Shown here in pieces: positions 5,876-51,711 of a stretch of DNA of 64,000 bases. Origin of the DNA: a virus; the IMG/VR virus record IMGVR_UViG_3300028840_004475, positions 83,748 through 147,747 of that record; one strand, given 5' to 3'. The translations under genes and the position numbers were made by a program. Position 1 is the stretch's first letter; every line of letters starts with the position of its first letter. Below the pieces are notes generated by a model. The model saw only the letters and a program-made list of their open reading frames with translations, made no database searches and was not told the DNA's origin.

Positions 5876-7459
5876 CTACGCGCCGCTACGACCGTAGTCG
5901 AAGATGCTGACGAACAGATCGGTCGTGTTCATCGCCCACCCAAGACGGATGAGTGCGTTGTTCGCAGTTGGCATCGTGGTCGTGAGACCACCACCGACTG
6001 CGAGCCAGTACACGTCACCAGGGGTTGCGCCAGTGAGGCACGAGCACGGGCCAAGAGACGTGATTGTCGCTTCCTGACCAACGGTACCCTGAGCAGTCTC
6101 AGCGACACCGAAGATCTGAGCCTTGGTTGGCCAGTCCGCCTTGGCGGCATCGCCCTTGAGCAGGCGGTCAGCAGTCGTCGACCAGTAGACCGGATCTGCG
6201 ATGGCAATGGCCTCGCCAACCTCGTAGTCATCCTCGACGATACCTGCCTGAGCAGCCGAAGCCACCAGCTGACCGGAGGCGTTGATGGTGACGGTTGTGC
6301 CGTCGACCTTGACCTTCAGACCAGTGGCGTCTTGGTCGAGACCTCCAGCGGTCGTGCTGTACTTGACTCCCAGTTCGTTGGAGACGATGTCCAGGGTCGG
6401 GTTGGTTGCCTCGAGGTTGATCTCGAGACCTCCATTGGCCCCGTCGAACTCGATGGCGCCGTCTGTCTCGAGTTTGACTTCCACACCGGAGGAGGTGACC
6501 GTGACACCGGCGGCGGTATTCGGAAGGACAGACACCAACTGGTTCGGGGTCGTCCCCGTGAGCTGCAGACCAGGTGTGGTCGCATGCAGCGCCAGTGTCA
6601 CTGCATCGGCGTCGATCTTGACACCGTCCTTGACGTTGACGTCGAGCACGTTGAAGGTCTTGGTAAGACCGTCACCAGCAACGACCTGTCCAGGACCGTT
6701 GAACATGACCCACTCGCCAGGAGTGGAGTCCCAGACGTACCCCAGGTTCTCGTAGATGCTGTTGTCACCAGCAACGGTGCGACCTTCTCCGTTCGTGGGA
6801 ACGGTGAACGTCCACGTGTTGGTGGTAGCGTTGTAGACCGCGACGTTGTCTTCCTTGGTCGCGAACGAACCGGCTGCGCTGGTGTCAGTGACGATGACGT
6901 ACGTGCCATCTGGCGGCTCAGCACCAGAGTTGGCCAGGATCAGGTTCCACGCAGTCCCGCTCCACTCCACGATGTCGCCGATTGCGAACGTCGACCAGGC
7001 ACCCCCAACGCCTGCGACGACGTAGGCGTTGCCAGCGTCACCAGCGGTGAGAGTTGGAGCCGTGGTCAGCGCATCGTTCACCATCTTGAGGACTTGAACT
7101 GCGTGCTTCCACGCGACACCGGCCGCCACGCTGTCGAGCTGGTTCTTGTTGACGGCGTCTGTACCCGCGGAACCTGGCCCCAACCCCGTAATGGAATTGG
7201 TGTTCATCACCAGGTCGCTGGTCAGGTTCAAGCCGTCGAGGTCAGCACCGGTCTGACCATAAGCGAGGGCATCCTCGTCCGCGGTAGCGGACGCCAAACC
7301 GGTGATCTTGTACGGCGTACCGCCGCCGGTACCGTCCATGGCAACGGTACCGTTCATGGTGAGACCAGCAAGGGTGATGGCGTCGGCTGTTGGGTCTACG
7401 CCGCTGTAGCCACCGAGCTGCCCATCCTTGTCGAAGAAAACTGGAATACGTTCGGCCAC
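5876..7459 (-). CDS. Fibre protein (tail or head fibre)
   Basis: DAVNKNQLD and AGDGL fibre motifs, repeated beta-shaft units, C-terminal capsid-cement-like domain. Confidence 0.75.
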   Translation of the reverse strand: MAERIPVFFDKDGQLGGYSGVDPTADAITLAGLTMNGTVAMDGTGGGTPYKITGLASATADEDALAYGQTGADLDGLNLTSDLVMNTNSITGLGPGSAGTDAVNKNQLDSVAAGVAWKHAVQVLKMVNDALTTAPTLTAGDAGNAYVVAGVGGAWSTFAIGDIVEWSGTAWNLILANSGAEPPDGTYVIVTDTSAAGSFATKEDNVAVYNATTNTWTFTVPTNGEGRTVAGDNSIYENLGYVWDSTPGEWVMFNGPGQVVAGDGLTKTFNVLDVNVKDGVKIDADAVTLALHATTPGLQLTGTTPNQLVSVLPNTAAGVTVTSSGVEVKLETDGAIEFDGANGGLEINLEATNPTLDIVSNELGVKYSTTAGGLDQDATGLKVKVDGTTVTINASGQLVASAAQAGIVEDDYEVGEAIAIADPVYWSTTADRLLKGDAAKADWPTKAQIFGVAETAQGTVGQEATITSLGPCSCLTGATPGDVYWLAVGGGLTTTMPTANNALIRLGWAMNTTDLFVSIFDYGRSGA

Positions 7460-29392: not shown

Positions 29393-31126
29393 ATGCAGAC
29401 CTTCACCGAGGCAACGCGCTGGCGGAAGCCGACCAAGCGCAAGGGCAACGGCCGCAACTACGCCCAGCAGCGCCAGGTCATCCCAGGCAAGAGCCGGCTC
29501 ATGACTTCGACCTCGAGCGGCACCAAGGCCTTCAAGGTGGACGACTGGGGTCGCCTCGCCCGCTTCCTGATCCTGGGAGCAGACAAGCCGACCTTCTACG
29601 CGACGAAGCGCCAGCTGGTGCGGGACAACGCGAGGGTGGTCGAGCGCTGCATCAAGGAAGACGGTATCCGTACCGTGGACCTGATCGCGGAAGTGTCGAT
29701 TCAGGGCTCGGCGCCGAACAACGACCCGGCCCTGTTTGCGCTGGCAATGTGCGCGACCCTGGGTGGCCTCCACACCCGCCAGTACGCCCTCGGGCGCCTG
29801 TCGGACGTGGCGCGGATCGGAACGCACCTGTTCCACTTCGTGGCCTACTGCGAGGGTCTCGGTCACGGCTGGGGCCGGAACATGCGACGTGCGATCCGTG
29901 GGTGGTACAACGAGAAGGCGCCGGACAAGCTGGCGTATCAGATCCTGAAGTACAAGCAGCGTGACGGCTGGTCGCACAAGGATCTGCTCGCTCTGGCTCA
30001 CCCGCGCACTTCGAACAAGGAACGTGATGCCATCTACCGGTACATCGTGGCCGGCATCGATGGTCTGGGCAAGCGTACTGTCCTGAAGCACAACGGCCGC
30101 CGGAAGGTCCGCAAGACCTACCCGGACGTGTCACGTCACCTGCCGGCGCAGATCTTCGCCGCGCACGACGTGCACAAGGTCAGCAAGCGGAAGGCCAAGC
30201 AGCTCATCGAAGAGCACCGCATGACCCATGAGATGGTGCCGAACGAGCTGAAGAACGACCCAGAGGTCTGGGAGATCATGCTCGAGACGATGCCCATCGG
30301 AGCGATGGTGCGGAACCTCGGCAAGATGACCAGCATCGGCCTCCTGGACCGGATGTCCAGGGCCTCGAAGCTGGTGATCGACCGGCTGGGCGACATGGAG
30401 CGGATCCGTCGGGCGCGTCTGCACCCGATCGAGTTCCTCAAGGCCAACCGTGTCTACGGTGCCGGCCGCGGGGACAAGGGATCGCTGTGCTGGGATCCGG
30501 TGCGCGGGATCGTCCGAGCACTGGACGACGGGTTCTACCTGGCCTTCGGCGCGATCGAGCCGAGCGGCGTGAACACTGGTCTGTTCATCGACGTCTCTGG
30601 TTCGATGGCATGGGACACCTCACGCGTGAAGTCGATGGCGAACATGACCGCACGTGAGCTGTCAGGTGCCATGGCCCTGGTGACGGCGAACGTGGAGCCG
30701 TACTGGGAGATCATCGCCTTCTCCGGCGGCTACGACTCGCTCGAGGAGATCCCGATCGAGCCCGGCATGAAGCTGGACACGGTCGTGAACAGGATGGAGC
30801 GTATGCGAGCCGGCAGCACGAACCTGTCGCTACCGTTCGAGTACGCACGTGGACGCGGTGTCCCGATCGAGACGTTTATCGTCTACACAGACAACGAGAC
30901 GAATCACTTCGGCTCGCTGCATCCGTCGGAGGCACTGCGCAGGTACCGGAAAGAGACCGGCATCGACGCGAAGCTGATCGTGGTCGGCATGGTGGCGAAC
31001 GACATCTCGATCGCTGACCCGACCGATCACGGCATGTTGGATGTAGTTGGGTTCGACACGAACGCTCCGTCAGTGATGGCGGACTTCGCGAAGGGCGCCT
31101 ACGAGATCGACGTCGAGCAGGGCTGA
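29393..31126 (+). CDS. rsr: Ro60/Rsr RNA-binding protein (TROVE + vWA)
   Basis: DDW.RL.RFLILG, ARIGTHLFHF, KYKQRDGWSHKDLL.LAHP, MP.GAM.RNLGKMT, HP, DVSGSM MIDAS motif, YTDNET, IADP.D.GMLDVVGFD. Confidence 0.96.
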   Translation: MQTFTEATRWRKPTKRKGNGRNYAQQRQVIPGKSRLMTSTSSGTKAFKVDDWGRLARFLILGADKPTFYATKRQLVRDNARVVERCIKEDGIRTVDLIAEVSIQGSAPNNDPALFALAMCATLGGLHTRQYALGRLSDVARIGTHLFHFVAYCEGLGHGWGRNMRRAIRGWYNEKAPDKLAYQILKYKQRDGWSHKDLLALAHPRTSNKERDAIYRYIVAGIDGLGKRTVLKHNGRRKVRKTYPDVSRHLPAQIFAAHDVHKVSKRKAKQLIEEHRMTHEMVPNELKNDPEVWEIMLETMPIGAMVRNLGKMTSIGLLDRMSRASKLVIDRLGDMERIRRARLHPIEFLKANRVYGAGRGDKGSLCWDPVRGIVRALDDGFYLAFGAIEPSGVNTGLFIDVSGSMAWDTSRVKSMANMTARELSGAMALVTANVEPYWEIIAFSGGYDSLEEIPIEPGMKLDTVVNRMERMRAGSTNLSLPFEYARGRGVPIETFIVYTDNETNHFGSLHPSEALRRYRKETGIDAKLIVVGMVANDISIADPTDHGMLDVVGFDTNAPSVMADFAKGAYEIDVEQG

Positions 31127-31135
31127 CACGAGTTT

Positions 31136-31196
31136 GAGGGCCGGACGGCTTGGGTTATCTTGCAACGATACCCCCCAGGCCAAACACTTTGCCCTC
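31136..31196 (+). ncRNA. Y RNA 1 (short; apical loop TTGCAAC)
   Basis: GAGGGC-C-GGA...TTT-GCCCTC bulged-C Ro-binding stem, 9 nt after the Ro60 stop. Confidence 0.8.
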
Positions 31197-31205
31197 TTCA
31201 AGTTT

Positions 31206-31324
31206 GGCTGACGTAGCGATGTGGAAGGACACATGAGAGACGGCAGTAGCCCAAGGCTAGGTGTGTGCCGCCCCGTTTAGAGGAATCCTTGGGGAGCTGG
31301 TATCAAGGCCAGTCTGCGTCAGTC
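31206..31324 (+). ncRNA. Structured RNA, partly tRNA-like, without the Ro stem
   Basis: GGCTGACGTAG pairs with CTGCGTCAGTC; internal hairpins; same AGTTT leader as the Y RNA units. Confidence 0.55.
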
Positions 31325-31341
31325 GTTCTATGGAAGGATTT

Positions 31342-31452
31342 GTGGGCCGAATGGATTGCAGGGTTATCGATGGTTCGAATCCACCTGGCGGGTCTAAACC
31401 ACCCGCTATCGCCTAGCTGGTTAAGGCACCCCTGTACCAACAACTTGCCCAC
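31342..31452 (+). ncRNA. Y RNA 2, YrlA-type (T arm - closed acceptor - D arm)
   Basis: GTGGGCCGA...TTGCCCAC; GGTTCGAATCC, TGGCGGG/CCCGCTA, GCCTAGCTGGTTAAGGC. Confidence 0.88.
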
Positions 31453-31469
31453 TTTGAATTATGGGAGTT

Positions 31470-31597
31470 GCGGGCCGTAGACTGAACGTTATCTAAGCGC
31501 GCAATTTTGCGCTTATAGCTCAGTTGGTAGAGCGCCGGGGGTAGCCTCGGAGGTCGAGGGTTCGAATCCCTAACGACGTTCTTTCAGCTTTGTCCGC
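31470..31597 (+). ncRNA. Y RNA 3 (closed acceptor - D - anticodon-arm mimic - T)
   Basis: GCGGGCCGTA...TTTGTCCGC; TAAGCGC/GCGCTTA, TAGCTCAGTTGGTAGAGC, GGGTTCGAATCCC. Confidence 0.82.
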
Positions 31598-31619
31598 GCC
31601 CTACCTATTAGAGGAGTTT

Positions 31620-31682
31620 GAGGGCCGGAAGTCTTGGGTTATCACTTCGGATGATGCTTCCCAGGACACTAACTTTGCCCTC
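31620..31682 (+). ncRNA. Y RNA 4 (short; apical TATCA-CTTCGGA-TGATG)
   Basis: GAGGGCCGGA...TTTGCCCTC. Confidence 0.8.
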
Positions 31683-31701
31683 GTTTCTATACACTGAGTT
31701 T

Positions 31702-31768
31702 GTGGGCCGGAGGCAACGGGTTACCTTTCATTTGGAGAAAACACACCCATCGCCAACAACTTGCCCAC
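31702..31768 (+). ncRNA. Y RNA 5 (short; apical TTTC-ATTTGGA-GAAA)
   Basis: GTGGGCCGGA...CTTGCCCAC. Confidence 0.8.
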
Positions 31769-31787
31769 TTCGTTTTGAGAGGAGTTT

Positions 31788-31918
31788 GCGGGCCGTACGA
31801 AATAGGTTACCAATGCAAACTGTAGGTCGCGGGTTCGAGTCCCGTCATCGGCACCATGCCGATGTAGATCAGCTGGTAGATCAACAGTGGTTACACGCCT
31901 ACTTCACTTTTTGCCCGC
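31788..31918 (+). ncRNA. Y RNA 6 (tRNA permuted at the anticodon loop; acceptor closed by ACCAT)
   Basis: GCGGGCCGTA...TTTGCCCGC; ACTGT-AGGTC-T arm-CATCGGC ACCAT GCCGATG-D arm-ACAGT. Confidence 0.87.
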
Positions 31919-31940
31919 GTTTCAAAGGACACTATGGTTT

Positions 31941-32072
31941 GAGGGCCGGACGCACGTTGGGTTATCCACTCATAATGGAGAGGTCGCAGGTTCGAATCCT
32001 GTCGTGGCTTTAGCGAGTCACGTAGCTCAGTTGGTCAGAGCGCTAAACCCCCAATGTCAACTATTTGCCCTC
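31941..32072 (+). ncRNA. Y RNA 7 (anticodon arm CAT - T - closed acceptor - D)
   Basis: GAGGGCCGGA...TTTGCCCTC; TCCA-CTCATAA-TGGA, GCAGGTTCGAATCCTGT, CGTGGCT/AGTCACG, D arm. Confidence 0.87.
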
Positions 32073-32577: not shown

Positions 32578-32578
32578 C

Positions 32579-32608
32579 TTGACAGATCGATAACCGATGC
32601 ATCACGAT
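32579..32608 (+). promoter_or_regulatory. sigma70-like promoter, tRNA operon 1
   Basis: TTGACA-N18-CACGAT. Confidence 0.65.
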
Positions 32609-32630
32609 GAAAACTTCGTCGGAGGATGCT

Positions 32631-32744
32631 ATGCACCGCGCAATTCAGATCACCACCATTCCCATCAAGCGCGACGGACGATTGTCCTTCCTCTGTTCCC
32701 TTTCGTCCCTATTTCTCTATTCCAATTCCGGCTGGCGACTGTAG
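32631..32744 (+). CDS. Leader peptide 1: MHRAIQITTIPIKRDGRLSFLCSLSSLFLYSNSGWRL
   Basis: GGAGG SD; 18 of the last 20 residues are L/S/F/C/Y/N/W, the amino acids of operon 1; stop is 12 nt before the first tRNA. Confidence 0.8.
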   Translation: MHRAIQITTIPIKRDGRLSFLCSLSSLFLYSNSGWRL

Positions 32745-32756
32745 ACGCATCTTTGC

Positions 32757-32840
32757 GGATCGGTAGCTGAGCTGGTTTAGCAGCGGGCTGTTAACCCGTG
32801 CCCTCGGGCTACGTGGGTTCGAGTCCCACCCGATCCGCCA
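32757..32840 (+). tRNA. tRNA-Asn(GTT), long variable arm
   Basis: Cloverleaf, loop CTGTTAA, CCA end. Confidence 0.85.
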
Positions 32841-32843
32841 TGT

Positions 32844-32912
32844 GGGCGCCAGGCTATGGCAGCCAAGCGGGCTCCAACCCCGCAGGACAGGGTTCGATTC
32901 CTTGGGCGCTCG
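32844..32912 (+). tRNA. tRNA-Trp(CCA)
   Basis: Loop CTCCAAC; CCA end not encoded. Confidence 0.8.
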
Positions 32913-32927
32913 TAGAAAGAAAAATGT

Positions 32928-33003
32928 GGACTCGTCGCTGAGTTGGTTCAGGCGCCTGGTTGAAGCCCAGGAGACGTTGGTTCGATTCCAACCGAGTCCA
33001 CCA
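32928..33003 (+). tRNA. tRNA-Phe(GAA)
   Basis: Loop TTGAAGC, CCA end. Confidence 0.9.
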
Positions 33004-33006
33004 AAC

Positions 33007-33082
33007 GCGGGCATAGCCCAACTGGTAGGAGGCGACGGTTTTAAGGTCCGTTCAGTGGTGGGTTCGAATCCCCCTGCCCGTA
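33007..33082 (+). tRNA. tRNA-Leu(TAA), short variable region
   Basis: Loop TTTAAGG. Confidence 0.8.
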
Positions 33083-33151
33083 TTCAAGGAAACGAACGAA
33101 AACTGAAATAAGGAGGTCGCCTCGAGCCCATGTTTCAAAAGATCAGCACAT

Positions 33152-33234
33152 GTCAGAGTGGCGGAATTGGTAGACGCGCAGGCCCGAGGAGCCTGTACTT
33201 CGGTGTGAGGGTTCGACTCCCTCCTCTGACACCA
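33152..33234 (+). tRNA. tRNA-Leu(GAG)
   Basis: Loop CCGAGGA, CCA end. Confidence 0.9.
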
Positions 33235-33237
33235 TGT

Positions 33238-33328
33238 GTAGCGGTGGCTGAGCGGTTGAAAGCACCAGACTGTAGATCTGGAGATCCGAAAGGGTCCAAC
33301 GGTGGTTCGAATCCATCCCGCTACACCA
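33238..33328 (+). tRNA. tRNA-Tyr(GTA)
   Basis: Loop CTGTAGA, long variable arm, CCA end. Confidence 0.9.
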
Positions 33329-33331
33329 TAT

Positions 33332-33407
33332 GCCCGTCTACCCCAATCTGGTACGAGGGGCTCGGCTCAGACCCGAGATGTTCCCGGTTCGAATCCGGGG
33401 GCGGGCA
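33332..33407 (+). tRNA. tRNA-Leu(CAG), short variable region
   Basis: Loop CTCAGAC. Confidence 0.85.
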
Positions 33408-33512
33408 AAATGAAAAGCCCCTGGCCACAGTGACCAGGGGCACCCTCGCTCCTCGGGGGAAGGACAACGAAGGTGAGCTGATCGTAGCAGGAGGCGAACA
33501 TAGTTCAAGTGT

Positions 33513-33595
33513 GCCGGGGTGGCGGAATTGGAATACGCGCTGGCCTCAAGCACCAGTGCTTCGGCATGAGGGTTCGACTCCCTCTCCCGGCACCA
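33513..33595 (+). tRNA. tRNA-Leu(CAA)
   Basis: Loop CTCAAGC, CCA end. Confidence 0.9.
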
Positions 33596-33596
33596 T

Positions 33597-33688
33597 GGAA
33601 GGTTGGCCGATGTTGGGATGGCGCCTGCTTGGAAAGCAGAGACCGGCCCGAGAGGGTCGCAGAGGTTCGATTCCTCTACCTTCCGCCA
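33597..33688 (+). tRNA. tRNA-Ser(GGA)
   Basis: Loop TTGGAAA, long variable arm, CCA end. Confidence 0.88.
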
Positions 33689-33689
33689 T

Positions 33690-33764
33690 GGGCAGTGGGT
33701 CTGTCGGGATGGATGCTGGATTGCAACCCCAGAGAAACTGGTTCGACTCCAGTACTGCCCTCCA
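33690..33764 (+). tRNA. tRNA-Cys(GCA)
   Basis: Loop TTGCAAC, U73, CCA end. Confidence 0.85.
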
Positions 33765-33795
33765 AAAAAAGAGGGGCCCTCGAGGGCCCCTCTTT
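33765..33795. terminator. Bidirectional intrinsic terminator
   Basis: A-tract-GAGGGGCCC-TCGA-GGGCCCCTC-TTT between convergent units. Confidence 0.8.
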
Positions 33796-33813: not shown

Positions 33814-34338
33814 CTAGGCGGCTTCGAGCAGCACGAAGTAGATGTCGCCGCGGAACTCGACCCAGTCGCCGACGGAACCGGCCGTGTACGAGACGCTGAC
33901 GGCGGTTCCGTTGCACACGTGTCCCTCAGGAACCAGCACGCCACCACCGCTCTCGTCGACTGCCAGGAGTGCGCCGAGGGTCTGACCAGTGTTCAGGAGA
34001 GTCGGCTTCTGGATGCCGACGGCGCTGCAGTCGATGCCGACACCGAAGCCATCAGCGTCACCACCAACCTCGGTGGAGAGCAGACCAATGTCCATGGTCT
34101 TGGTGGCACCGGTGACCTCGGCGGCCGTCACGTCCACGTAGTATCCAAGGACGACACTCTTCAGCGGAAGGTCGACGCCGCTGTCCTGCTCGGTTCCATC
34201 GGGAGCCGCAGTGATCGGAACCCGGAGGGTCTTCGTGACTGCACCGCTCGCACTGAGATCACATTGTTCGTTGATCTCTGTGGCGGTGGCAGTGATCGAC
34301 TCCATCCACCTCTTGATAGGACGAACGATAAACCACAT
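33814..34338 (-). CDS. Virion-like beta-rich protein (possible capsid decoration)
   Basis: GAGGAGG SD before ATG at 34338; ITATATEIN motif; GC3 bias like the structural genes. Confidence 0.65.
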   Translation of the reverse strand: MWFIVRPIKRWMESITATATEINEQCDLSASGAVTKTLRVPITAAPDGTEQDSGVDLPLKSVVLGYYVDVTAAEVTGATKTMDIGLLSTEVGGDADGFGVGIDCSAVGIQKPTLLNTGQTLGALLAVDESGGGVLVPEGHVCNGTAVSVSYTAGSVGDWVEFRGDIYFVLLEAA

Positions 34339-34488
34339 ATTCAGCCTCCTCGTACCTAGCCAGGGCACGGTCTCCCACTGAACCATTCAATGGGGTTACA
34401 CCCTCGTTGGGGATTGGCTGTGCATATACTGCTACACATTGGCATTTATGTGCAACACAACTTTCTGGGAGATCAACCGAGAATTATC

Positions 34489-34518
34489 TTGACTGATCGA
34501 ATAGCGATCTCTTACGGT
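34489..34518 (+). promoter_or_regulatory. sigma70-like promoter, tRNA operon 2
   Basis: TTGACT-N18-TACGGT; spacer begins GATCGA as in the operon 1 promoter. Confidence 0.6.
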
Positions 34519-34527
34519 GAAGATCTC

Positions 34528-34650
34528 ATGTTGTACTCGTTGACCAGGAAAGCCAGACCATCCGTCGCCACAGCAGTGGCGAAGCGGACGGGCATGTGCC
34601 TGGTTATCGAGGGACAGACCCGCCATTTTCGAGATCCCAGCGCGGCGTAA
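34528..34650 (+). CDS. Leader peptide 2: MLYSLTRKARPSVATAVAKRTGMCLVIEGQTRHFRDPSAA
   Basis: ATG 9 nt after the -10 box (near-leaderless); has a codon readable by each of the 20 tRNAs in operon 2. Confidence 0.75.
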   Translation: MLYSLTRKARPSVATAVAKRTGMCLVIEGQTRHFRDPSAA

Positions 34651-34743
34651 ACTGTCCTTCAGCACTGGGAACCCGAAATCGGACAGACTCGAAAGTAACC
34701 AGGCTGGACGACAGCTGCGTCGCATCTGCTGATGCACGCCTGT

Positions 34744-34821
34744 GGGGGTGTGGCCTAGTCTGGTCTAGGGCGCCTGACTGTCGATCAGGAGACTTCGCCG
34801 GTTCGAATCCGGTCGCCCCCG
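34744..34821 (+). tRNA. tRNA-Asp(GTC)
   Basis: Loop CTGTCGA. Confidence 0.88.
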
Positions 34822-35725: not shown

Positions 35726-36334
35726 ATGGCCAAGAAAGAAGAACGCAAACAAGCTAGAACTATGCGCAGGGGTGGAAAGTCGATAGTACAAATTGCGAAA
35801 TTACTTGGTGTATCAAAATCAAGTGTATATTTATGGACAAAGGATTTACCTCAACCAAGAAAATTCACGAAAGAATATCGACGTAAACGAAAAGAAAAAG
35901 CTCTAGCACGTTTGAAGAAAGAAAGAGAGAAACGAGAGAAAGAAAAAGCGAATCGCAAACTATTGAGTTGCGGAGATAGATGGATCATACGAGTGCCACC
36001 TGGGTACAAAGGCAAAACATATATCGGAGGAAGATACGTTCTTCAAAGTAGATATTTGATGGAACAAAAACTTGGAAGATACCTAAAATATAACGAGTGT
36101 GTTCACCATAAAAACGGGGATAAACTGGACGATAGAATTGAGAATTTGGAATTACATACTAGGAAATTACATGGAGAGATACATGCAATTAGAAAAAGGA
36201 CTAAACTCAAATGTCCAATATGTGATGTAGAATTTGAACGCAAAAACAGTTATGTGAAAAGTCACATAAAACAAGGATACAAAGGTTTTTATTGTAGCAA
36301 AAGGTGTGCGGCCAAGAAACAAAAGGGAGTATAG
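35726..36334 (+). mobile_element. Free-standing HNH homing endonuclease
   Basis: N-terminal HTH, VHHKNGDKLDDRIENL, C-terminal Zn finger; markedly AT-rich; own TTGACA-N17-TAATTT promoter at 35678. Confidence 0.88.
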
Positions 36335-39027: not shown

Positions 39028-39309
39028 ATGGCTGCGAAGGCAATGACGAAGACAGAGATCTGCAAGAAGCTGGCAGAAGCCAACGACATGAAACCGAAGG
39101 AGGCAAAGCTCTTCCTCGAATCGCTGGCACAGCTGGCCTACAAGGAGGCGAAGAACGGCTTCACCATCCCTGGCATCGGCAAGCTCGTCAAGCAGCGCCG
39201 TAAGGCGCGTGACGGTCGCAACCCGGCCACCGGTGAGAAGATCCGCATCAAGGCCAAGACCGTCCTGAAGTTCAGGGTCTCGAAGGTCGCGAAGGACGCG
39301 ATTCTGTAG
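39028..39309 (+). CDS. hup: HU family DNA-binding protein
   Basis: MTKTEI...IPGIGK...RKARDGRNPATGEKIRIKAK.V.KFR. Confidence 0.93.
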   Translation: MAAKAMTKTEICKKLAEANDMKPKEAKLFLESLAQLAYKEAKNGFTIPGIGKLVKQRRKARDGRNPATGEKIRIKAKTVLKFRVSKVAKDAIL

Positions 39310-50854: not shown

Positions 50855-50930
50855 CACCCGCGGTGGGACTCGAACCCACGACCTCCCAGGTCCATAGGCT
50901 GGGCACTCTACCGAACTGAGCTACGCGGGT
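50855..50930 (-). tRNA. tRNA-like element with 9-nt anticodon loop CCTATGGAC (copy A)
   Basis: ACCCGCG/CGCGGGT acceptor, canonical D arm, CCCAG/CTGGG, GTGGGTTCGAGTCCCAC. Confidence 0.8.
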
Positions 50931-51621: not shown

Positions 51622-51635
51622 ACTCTCTCCTGTTG

Positions 51636-51711
51636 CGCCCGCGGCGGGACTCGAACCCGCGACCTCCAAGGTCCATAGGCTTGGCACTCTACCTTGCTGA
51701 GCTACGCGGGC
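51636..51711 (-). tRNA. tRNA-like element with 9-nt anticodon loop CCTATGGAC (copy B)
   Basis: GCCCGCG/CGCGGGC, CCAAG/CTTGG, GCGGGTTCGAGTCCCGC. Confidence 0.8.

Follow-up and report, generated by a model that had tools for sequence, protein, structure and literature searches.

The enterobacterial multivalent attenuators, comprising ilvL of the ilvGMEDA operon and thrL together with hisL, pheL, leuL and trpL (for pheL, see PMC3082878), are built around a short open reading frame (ORF) that is led by a Shine-Dalgarno (SD) sequence and immediately follows the promoter. One part of this ORF brings together the control codons for several different amino acids, and slow decoding raises the expression of genes that relieve the shortage, in these cases genes of biosynthetic enzymes. 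The leader RNA carries a terminator hairpin, a U-tract and alternative 1:2/2:3/3:4 pairing.

Intrinsic termination is dispensed with in the tnaC-tnaA system of E. coli (PMC8429421), where the leader-held ribosome hides a C-rich, unstructured Rho entry site (rut). The ribosome stalls at the stop codon via a conserved arrest peptide sensing free tryptophan, and the rut site is located beside the stop codon, followed by a spacer of ~220 nt. The toiL upstream ORF (uORF) of topAI-yjhQ, likewise from E. coli, serves as a general sensor of ribosome stalling, with premature Rho-dependent termination as the output; the RNA is refolded around the downstream ribosome-binding site, and translation of topAI blocks Rho (PMC12121999).

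An accessory tRNA array that is switched on when translation is impaired is known from Anabaena PCC 7120 (trn operon; PMC8421152, PMC10272220), where the repressor TrcR acts on direct repeats at the promoter; a leader peptide is mentioned in neither report. In phages, the purpose and timing of tRNA genes are an old open question, to which codon compensation and evasion of tRNA-cutting defences are the competing answers (PMC10264068). A full-text literature search retrieved no published account of leader-peptide control of tRNA operons.

The ORF analysed here (Leader 1), which precedes a ten-tRNA operon of an uncultured phage, shares with the ilvL/thrL type the SD-led position right after the promoter, the clustering of control codons for several amino acids in one ORF part and, in its presumed logic, the relief of a shortage signalled by slow decoding. 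Unlike these attenuators, it would regulate tRNAs instead of biosynthetic enzymes and would sample seven amino acids and ten tRNAs at once; a terminator hairpin, a U-tract and alternative pairing are lacking, and the stop codon is 12 nt from the first tRNA. The likeness to tnaC that the original prediction had drawn covers the absent intrinsic terminator and may include a C-rich, unstructured stretch that a leader-held ribosome would hide. It does not extend to the arrest motif or the long spacer, both of which are absent from Leader 1; stalling would occur at hungry sense codons, the peptide is not conserved (5/37 residues shared with its counterpart in a related phage, G001), the C-rich stretch lies inside the ORF, and only 12 nt separate stop and tRNA. 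In contrast to toiL, nothing is translated downstream. As read from the DNA, Leader 1 would represent leader-peptide control with a new target, namely tRNA genes, and without an intrinsic terminator.

Organization of the Operon 1 Unit

The source record is a 147,747-bp phage genome with direct terminal repeats, and the window, i.e., the stretch of 64 kb (64,000 nt) analysed here, constitutes its last part. In tRNA calling over the whole genome, all 39 calls fell inside this window, and operon 1 contains every tRNA for Asn, Trp, Phe, Tyr, Cys or Leu that the 147.7 kb encode. Just upstream of the tRNA operons, at 29393–32053, there is a Ro60 (TROVE-like) gene followed by ~900 nt of non-coding tRNA-like repeats (Y RNAs); a search with the Ro60 gene led to one distant locus with unrelated tRNAs.

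The operon 1 unit is encoded on the plus strand and begins with the promoter box CTTGACAGATCGA (32578–32590), containing the −35 hexamer TTGACA at 32579–32584. With one free base, this 13-mer also heads operon 2 at 34488, and these are its only two exact matches in the window. The promoter spacer of operon 1 contains the near-palindromic box GATCG-N5-CGATG (32585–32599), a possible operator, which has a perfect counterpart, GATCG-N5-CGATC, in the promoter spacer of operon 2 (34495–34509). The GATCG-N5-CGAT(C/G) box is confined to these two promoters, an equal number of matches being obtained in 6/100 shuffles, and hints weakly at a possible operator for a protein regulator. In G001, GGATCGAATGATCC is located near the start of the leader.

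A −10-like hexamer, CACGAT (32603–32608), follows 18 nt after the −35 hexamer, aligns with xxxGAT of G001 and would place the transcript start near 32615. An in-frame ATG at 32607 is probably absent from the transcript because it overlaps the −10 hexamer and lies upstream of this predicted start. The SD sequence GGAGGA (32621–32626), of which GGAGG is located 5 nt before the ATG, introduces the leader ORF (32631–32744), which consists of 37 codons plus TAG and lies between the promoter and the ten-tRNA operon; the SD-led short ORF directly downstream of a promoter that is expected of a leader-peptide attenuator is thus present. The ORF can be divided into a first half of 17 codons (32631–32681) and a sensor half of 20 codons (32682–32741). 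The TAG stop codon (32742–32744) and a 12-nt spacer without terminator (together 32742–32756) lead to the ten tRNA genes of operon 1 (32757–33764), which are, in this order, Asn, Trp, Phe, Leu-taa, Leu-gag, Tyr, Leu-cag, Leu-caa, Ser-gga and Cys.

The unit is closed by a GC-rich hairpin (33770–33793) that was read from the sequence and was not listed by the terminator scan; it is followed by two T on the plus strand (TTAGCA) and by seven T on the minus strand. This hairpin would end both operon 1 and the converging gene at 33814–34386. A further hairpin, inside operon 1 (33417–33441), has a T-run on the minus strand only and resembles a back-up terminator that would stop antisense transcripts of the same converging gene.

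Several of the tRNA genes are unusual in themselves. The tRNA-Asn (32757–32840) is 84 nt long and has a long paired variable arm of class-II-like appearance, which is unusual for Asn; its G001 homologue (L047 7913–7988, minus strand) is without the 8-nt insert. The tRNA-Trp (32843–32913; G001 homologue L047 7837–7911, minus strand) has a D stem of 3 bp and is called as Trp (cca) by ARAGORN; it is not among the Rfam RF00005 matches in either phage, and its best Rfam match in the window is mascRNA-menRNA with 20.5 bits. Leu-taa (33007–33082, 76 nt) and Leu-cag (33331–33408, 78 nt) are without the long variable arm that would be expected in a bacterial tRNA for Leu, and they have no encoded CCA, which is encoded by most other operon-1 tRNAs; the Leu tRNAs of G001 are all short as well. 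G001 also has two tRNA-like genes split by ~60-nt inserts between Val-tac and Leu-taa (L047 about 5900–6180, minus strand). Far from the main array, at 50855–50930 and 51635–51711 (minus strand), ARAGORN calls two "tRNA-His" with the unusual anticodon ATG.

Codon Content of Leader 1

The original prediction described Leader 1 as a two-part peptide fitted to the tRNAs of operon 1, and this description holds at the level of both amino acids and synonymous codons and recurs in Leader 3 of the same phage and in G001. A recount confirmed that codons 1–17 contain none of the seven operon-1 amino acids (L, S, F, C, Y, N and W; 0/17), and that these account for 18/20 of codons 18–37, with all seven represented; the two codons outside the set are GGC (Gly) and CGA (Arg). 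With ordinary wobble rules, the operon-1 tRNAs read 16/20 sensor codons. The remainder are TCG, which is read only by operon-3 tRNAs, CTA, which is read by no phage tRNA, and GGC and CGA, which are read by operon-2 tRNAs; codon-anticodon assignment thus bears out that TCG and CTA are outside the reach of operon 1. The codon TTA is missing from the sensor half, as had been stated, although the operon carries a Leu-taa tRNA. Five of the six Ser codons are TCC, that is, the codon of the operon's only Ser tRNA (Ser-gga). The control-codon cluster matching the supply of the operon, a hallmark of attenuators, is accordingly seen both in amino acids (18/20) and in codons (16/20), at P = 1e-8. In the first half, 16/17 codons are read by operon-2 tRNAs, and its interpretation as a deliberate operon-2 codon set was discarded as uninformative because almost all codons that are not in the operon-1 set are covered by operon 2. 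Likewise, TRF found nothing that would support tandem repeats as the origin of the Leu-x-Ser rhythm.

Among the 176,160 stop-free 20-codon windows in the six frames of the whole genome, a score of 18/20 is the single best and occurs once, at Leader 1; at the codon level, 16/20 ranks within the top 15 windows of the same scan. Using a proteome-proxy frequency of 27.9% for the seven amino acids, the binomial probability of at least 18/20 is 1.1e-8. The probability of finding none of the seven in 16 codons is 0.005, and that of at least 5/6 Ser codons being TCC is 3.3e-4, given a TCC share of 14.4% among the Ser codons of the genome. The TCC preference is evidence independent of the peptide because the choice of Ser codon is synonymous.

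The sensor half is C/U-rich and G-poor, as originally described (C 21, T 25, G 9 and A 5 in 60 nt). When these 60 nt were shuffled at the mononucleotide level, 18/20 was reached in 14 of 151,407 stop-free cases, one of which contained all seven amino acids, and the other two frames of the sensor half score 8 and 9. As such scores are rarely reached by shuffles and are absent from the other frames, the C/U-rich tract does not explain the match; the codon match is not a by-product of base composition.

Homologous Leaders in Related Phages

A terminase search led to G001, a 142,861-bp phage with a terminase ~52% identical and a tRNA region of its own, in which a leader homologous to Leader 1 is located upstream of an Asn-Trp tRNA pair. 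The two leaders have in common the start block GGAGGATGCYATG, the length of 37 codons and the position of the stop codon, 13 nt before tRNA-Asn in G001 compared to 12 nt here. The longest conserved stretch of the leader between the two phages is GGAGGATGCYATG, which spans the SD sequence and the start, and the peptides are identical at 5/37 residues (14%).

The tRNAs following the G001 leader are Asn, Trp, Asp, Phe, Val, five Leu, Pro, Thr, Tyr, four Ser and Gln. Of the codons of this leader, 32/36 specify the 11 amino acids of the downstream tRNAs, with 11/11 present (P = 1e-5), a match that assumes one transcription unit through 7 kb with interspersed ORFs, on the basis that no terminator-like sites occur on that strand. 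The leader is without a Cys codon, and the Cys tRNA of G001 lies upstream of it. Its eight Ser codons (AGC, AGT, TCC, TCT, TCG and TCA) cover all four downstream Ser tRNAs, and its Leu codons are CTG, TTA, TTG and CTT. The second half contains Asp, Arg, Pro and Gly throughout and is not membrane-like, and the excess of C over G (C minus G) ranks at the 98.6–99.7th percentile. The G001 leader thus reads as reworded to fit its own downstream tRNAs.

Among independent relatives with DNA context, G001 is the one case (n = 1); three further contigs carry a leader identical to it, and pattern scans of viral and metagenome contigs recovered only G001-type phage, again with an identical leader. A protein search found a closer relative of the peptide (P0002; 36 aa, 81% identical over 32 residues), known here from the peptide alone, in which 18/19 sensor residues belong to the seven-amino-acid set, with each of the seven represented. 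Its in-class substitutions say little, since the set comes mostly from the UNN row of the genetic code, within which point mutations tend to stay, and this codon neighbourhood makes such substitutions likely by itself. Beyond this near relative, no homologue of the leader peptide was found in 5.8 billion proteins. Neither the tRNA-poor relatives G002 and G003, both of which are incomplete, nor two smaller relatives contain the leader start motif. With 5/37 identity and this distribution of the start motif, the pattern of an ordinary small membrane peptide, i.e., conservation in phages that lack the matching tRNAs, was not observed.

The surrounding genes offer fewer points of comparison. For the 190-aa gene at 33814–34386, four relatives were found, none with tRNAs, and for the two small upstream ORFs and a 116-aa ORF inside the array, no relatives were found. 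An ORF in operon 2 (35726–36334) is low in GC and Lys-rich, has its own promoter-like site and SD sequence, and overlaps tRNA-Lys with its last codons; it looks like a homing (HNH-type) endonuclease gene inserted in operon 2. The cultured-phage collection contained no relative. The best genomic matches of an HU-like protein (39028–39309) are in MAGs of the PVC group and Fibrobacterota (Victivallales 75%, Phycisphaerae, Kiritimatiellia), a weak hint that the host possibly belongs to the PVC group.

RNA Structure and C-Richness

A scan of positions 32600–32760 detected nothing terminator-like, in agreement with the original statement that no terminator hairpin precedes tRNA-Asn, and the gap between stop codon and tRNA measures 12 nt only. 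The leader folds no better than its shuffles (z = −0.6 and −0.9), alternative strong helices, such as antiterminator/terminator pairings over the control codons, were not found in the leader folds, and no Rfam family besides tRNA matched the leader. Sequestration of the SD sequence by an anti-SD in the sensor half (UCCUCUG, 32689–32695) was rejected, as pairing of equal or greater strength is seen in 66% of codon shuffles.

The most C-rich and G-poor part of the leader is a 78-nt window (32651–32728, plus strand; C 30, G 9), which by its C minus G stands at the genome's 99.9th percentile and would be rut-like in composition. To judge this excess, the peptide was kept fixed and synonymous codons were resampled. 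Compared to genome codon usage, C minus G of Leader 1 is high (P = 0.007), but significance is lost when only codons read by operon-1 tRNAs are allowed in the sensor half (P = 0.12); in the first half alone, P is 0.055, and in Leader 3, it is 0.23. Hence, C-richness is largely explained by codon choice; it permits Rho and gives no independent argument for it.

The suggestion that the sensor half may double, in the manner of tnaC, as a rut site which a stalled ribosome masks is tentative: the lack of a terminator, the unstructured RNA and the base counts (C 30/G 9 in 78 nt) speak for it, and the loss of significance after codon restriction and the composition of Leader 2, which is not C-rich, speak against it.

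Leaders 2 and 3

The design of Leader 1 is repeated in Leader 3, whose Pro/Ser-rich end precedes Ser/Pro tRNAs. Leader 1 contains five TCC and one TCG, and Leader 3 one TCC and six TCG/TCA/AGT codons (Fisher P = 0.029); this split of the Ser codons follows which Ser tRNAs lie behind each leader. The stop codon of Leader 3 is 8 nt from the first tRNA. For C minus G, Leader 3 ranks at the 99.95th percentile of the genome, and Leader 2 at the 84–91st. In contrast to Leaders 1 and 3, the Leader 2 region (34515–34748) has a strong structure (z = −3.0). The output mechanism may not be common to all three leaders.

Proposed Mechanism

We consider it probable, on balance, that Leader 1 is translated and gauges the tRNA supply, exerting negative feedback on operon-1 output, with Rho loading as the most economical output step. 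The part of this proposal that concerns the sensor is well supported by the codon statistics and by one comparative case; the part that concerns Rho, taken alone, is doubtful. The succession of promoter, SD sequence, ORF and tRNA genes, the codon match, the rewording in the relative and the lack of a terminator are observations, from which we infer translation of the leader, stalling, the sign of the response and a role of Rho.

Specifically, Leader 1 would be a translated 37-codon ORF located 5′-terminally in the pre-tRNA transcript of operon 1, its second half acting as the sensor. As these last 20 codons would form a multivalent sensor written in codons decoded by the operon's ten tRNAs, the speed of the ribosome across the stretch would report the supply of exactly those tRNAs. 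A scarcity of operon-1 tRNAs would make ribosomes linger on the leader and form a queue there, with RNA polymerase continuing into the tRNA genes. Given a plentiful supply, the ribosome would finish at the TAG codon 12 nt before tRNA-Asn, leaving behind a naked, unstructured, C-rich leader, and output would fall. Given that an intrinsic terminator is lacking, Rho loading on the cleared leader (translation-dependent polarity) would be the most economical way to achieve this. The presence of Rho in the host is assumed here. A difficulty for the Rho step is that RNase P, by cutting at tRNA-Asn, would separate Rho and polymerase if termination were not fast; between the leader stop and the structured tRNA there are 12 nt.

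In a wider formulation, the leaders may belong to a terminator-less type of tRNA-gene attenuator, in which ribosome occupancy of a two-part leader, with a neutral first half where ribosomes could queue and a seven-amino-acid sensor half, decides whether the pre-tRNA transcript is aborted by Rho or by another factor acting on naked RNA, and in which the sorting of tRNAs into operons partly follows codon families (UNN/CUN for operon 1 and Pro/Ser for operon 3). Such sorting would render the matching leaders C-rich and unstructured by construction. We regard this formulation as tentative and, at present, rather improbable.

Alternative Explanations

The codon-matched sensor might have an output other than Rho, in that ribosome occupancy could alter processing or decay of the nascent pre-tRNA through access of RNase E, J or P to the 5′ end, or could act together with a protein binding the shared GATCG-N5-CGATC promoter box. 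As the first tRNA follows the stop codon by 12–13 nt in the two phages (this one and G001) and by 8 nt in the case of Leader 3, a terminating ribosome would abut the RNase P site; C-richness is accounted for by codon choice, the operator-like box is common to the promoters of operons 1 and 2, and the Anabaena tRNA array is under a promoter-bound repressor (PMC8421152). However, endonucleolytic maturation should free the tRNAs regardless of the fate of the 5′ leader, for which reason an effect of leader stability on tRNA yield is hard to see, and the palindrome count is only weakly above chance (6/100 shuffles equal it). We judge an output of this kind to be unlikely.

Readings that do away with the sensor altogether fare worse. 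A small hydrophobic or membrane peptide with a function of its own, whose likeness to the tRNA set is coincidental, could be suspected from the Leu/Phe/Ser-rich sensor half, which might resemble a short hydrophobic segment, and from the prediction of the peptide by a gene caller in two data sets. This is very improbable considering that the G001 counterpart, with 5/37 identical residues, carries charged residues and Pro through its second half, that the choice of synonymous Ser codons cannot serve a peptide function, that the design returns in Leader 3, and that a single near relative is the only homologue in 5.8 billion proteins. Equally remote is the idea of an RNA-level element (a rut site, a site for a pyrimidine-tract protein or an anti-SD) in which the open frame is incidental. 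The unstructured 78-nt window with its high C minus G (99.9th percentile) and the ability of the SD sequence to pair with UCCUCUG at 32689–32695 would fit such an element, but the leader is best conserved in its SD-ATG block, the SD:anti-SD pairing is matched or bettered by 66% of codon shuffles, and 18/20 is reached in just 14/151,407 stop-free shuffles, with 8 and 9 in the other frames. That Leader 1 is a chance ORF without function, for which its small size and nothing further speaks, is hardly credible at all, as its composition is a unique genome-wide extreme exactly between promoter and operon, and its architecture is conserved in G001 across a terminase identity of ~52%.

Conclusions

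If the gauge reading of Leader 1 is true, the phage would make tRNAs on demand, when those of the host run short or are destroyed. Leader-peptide control would then extend from amino-acid supply to tRNA supply and would, in this phage, operate without an intrinsic terminator.
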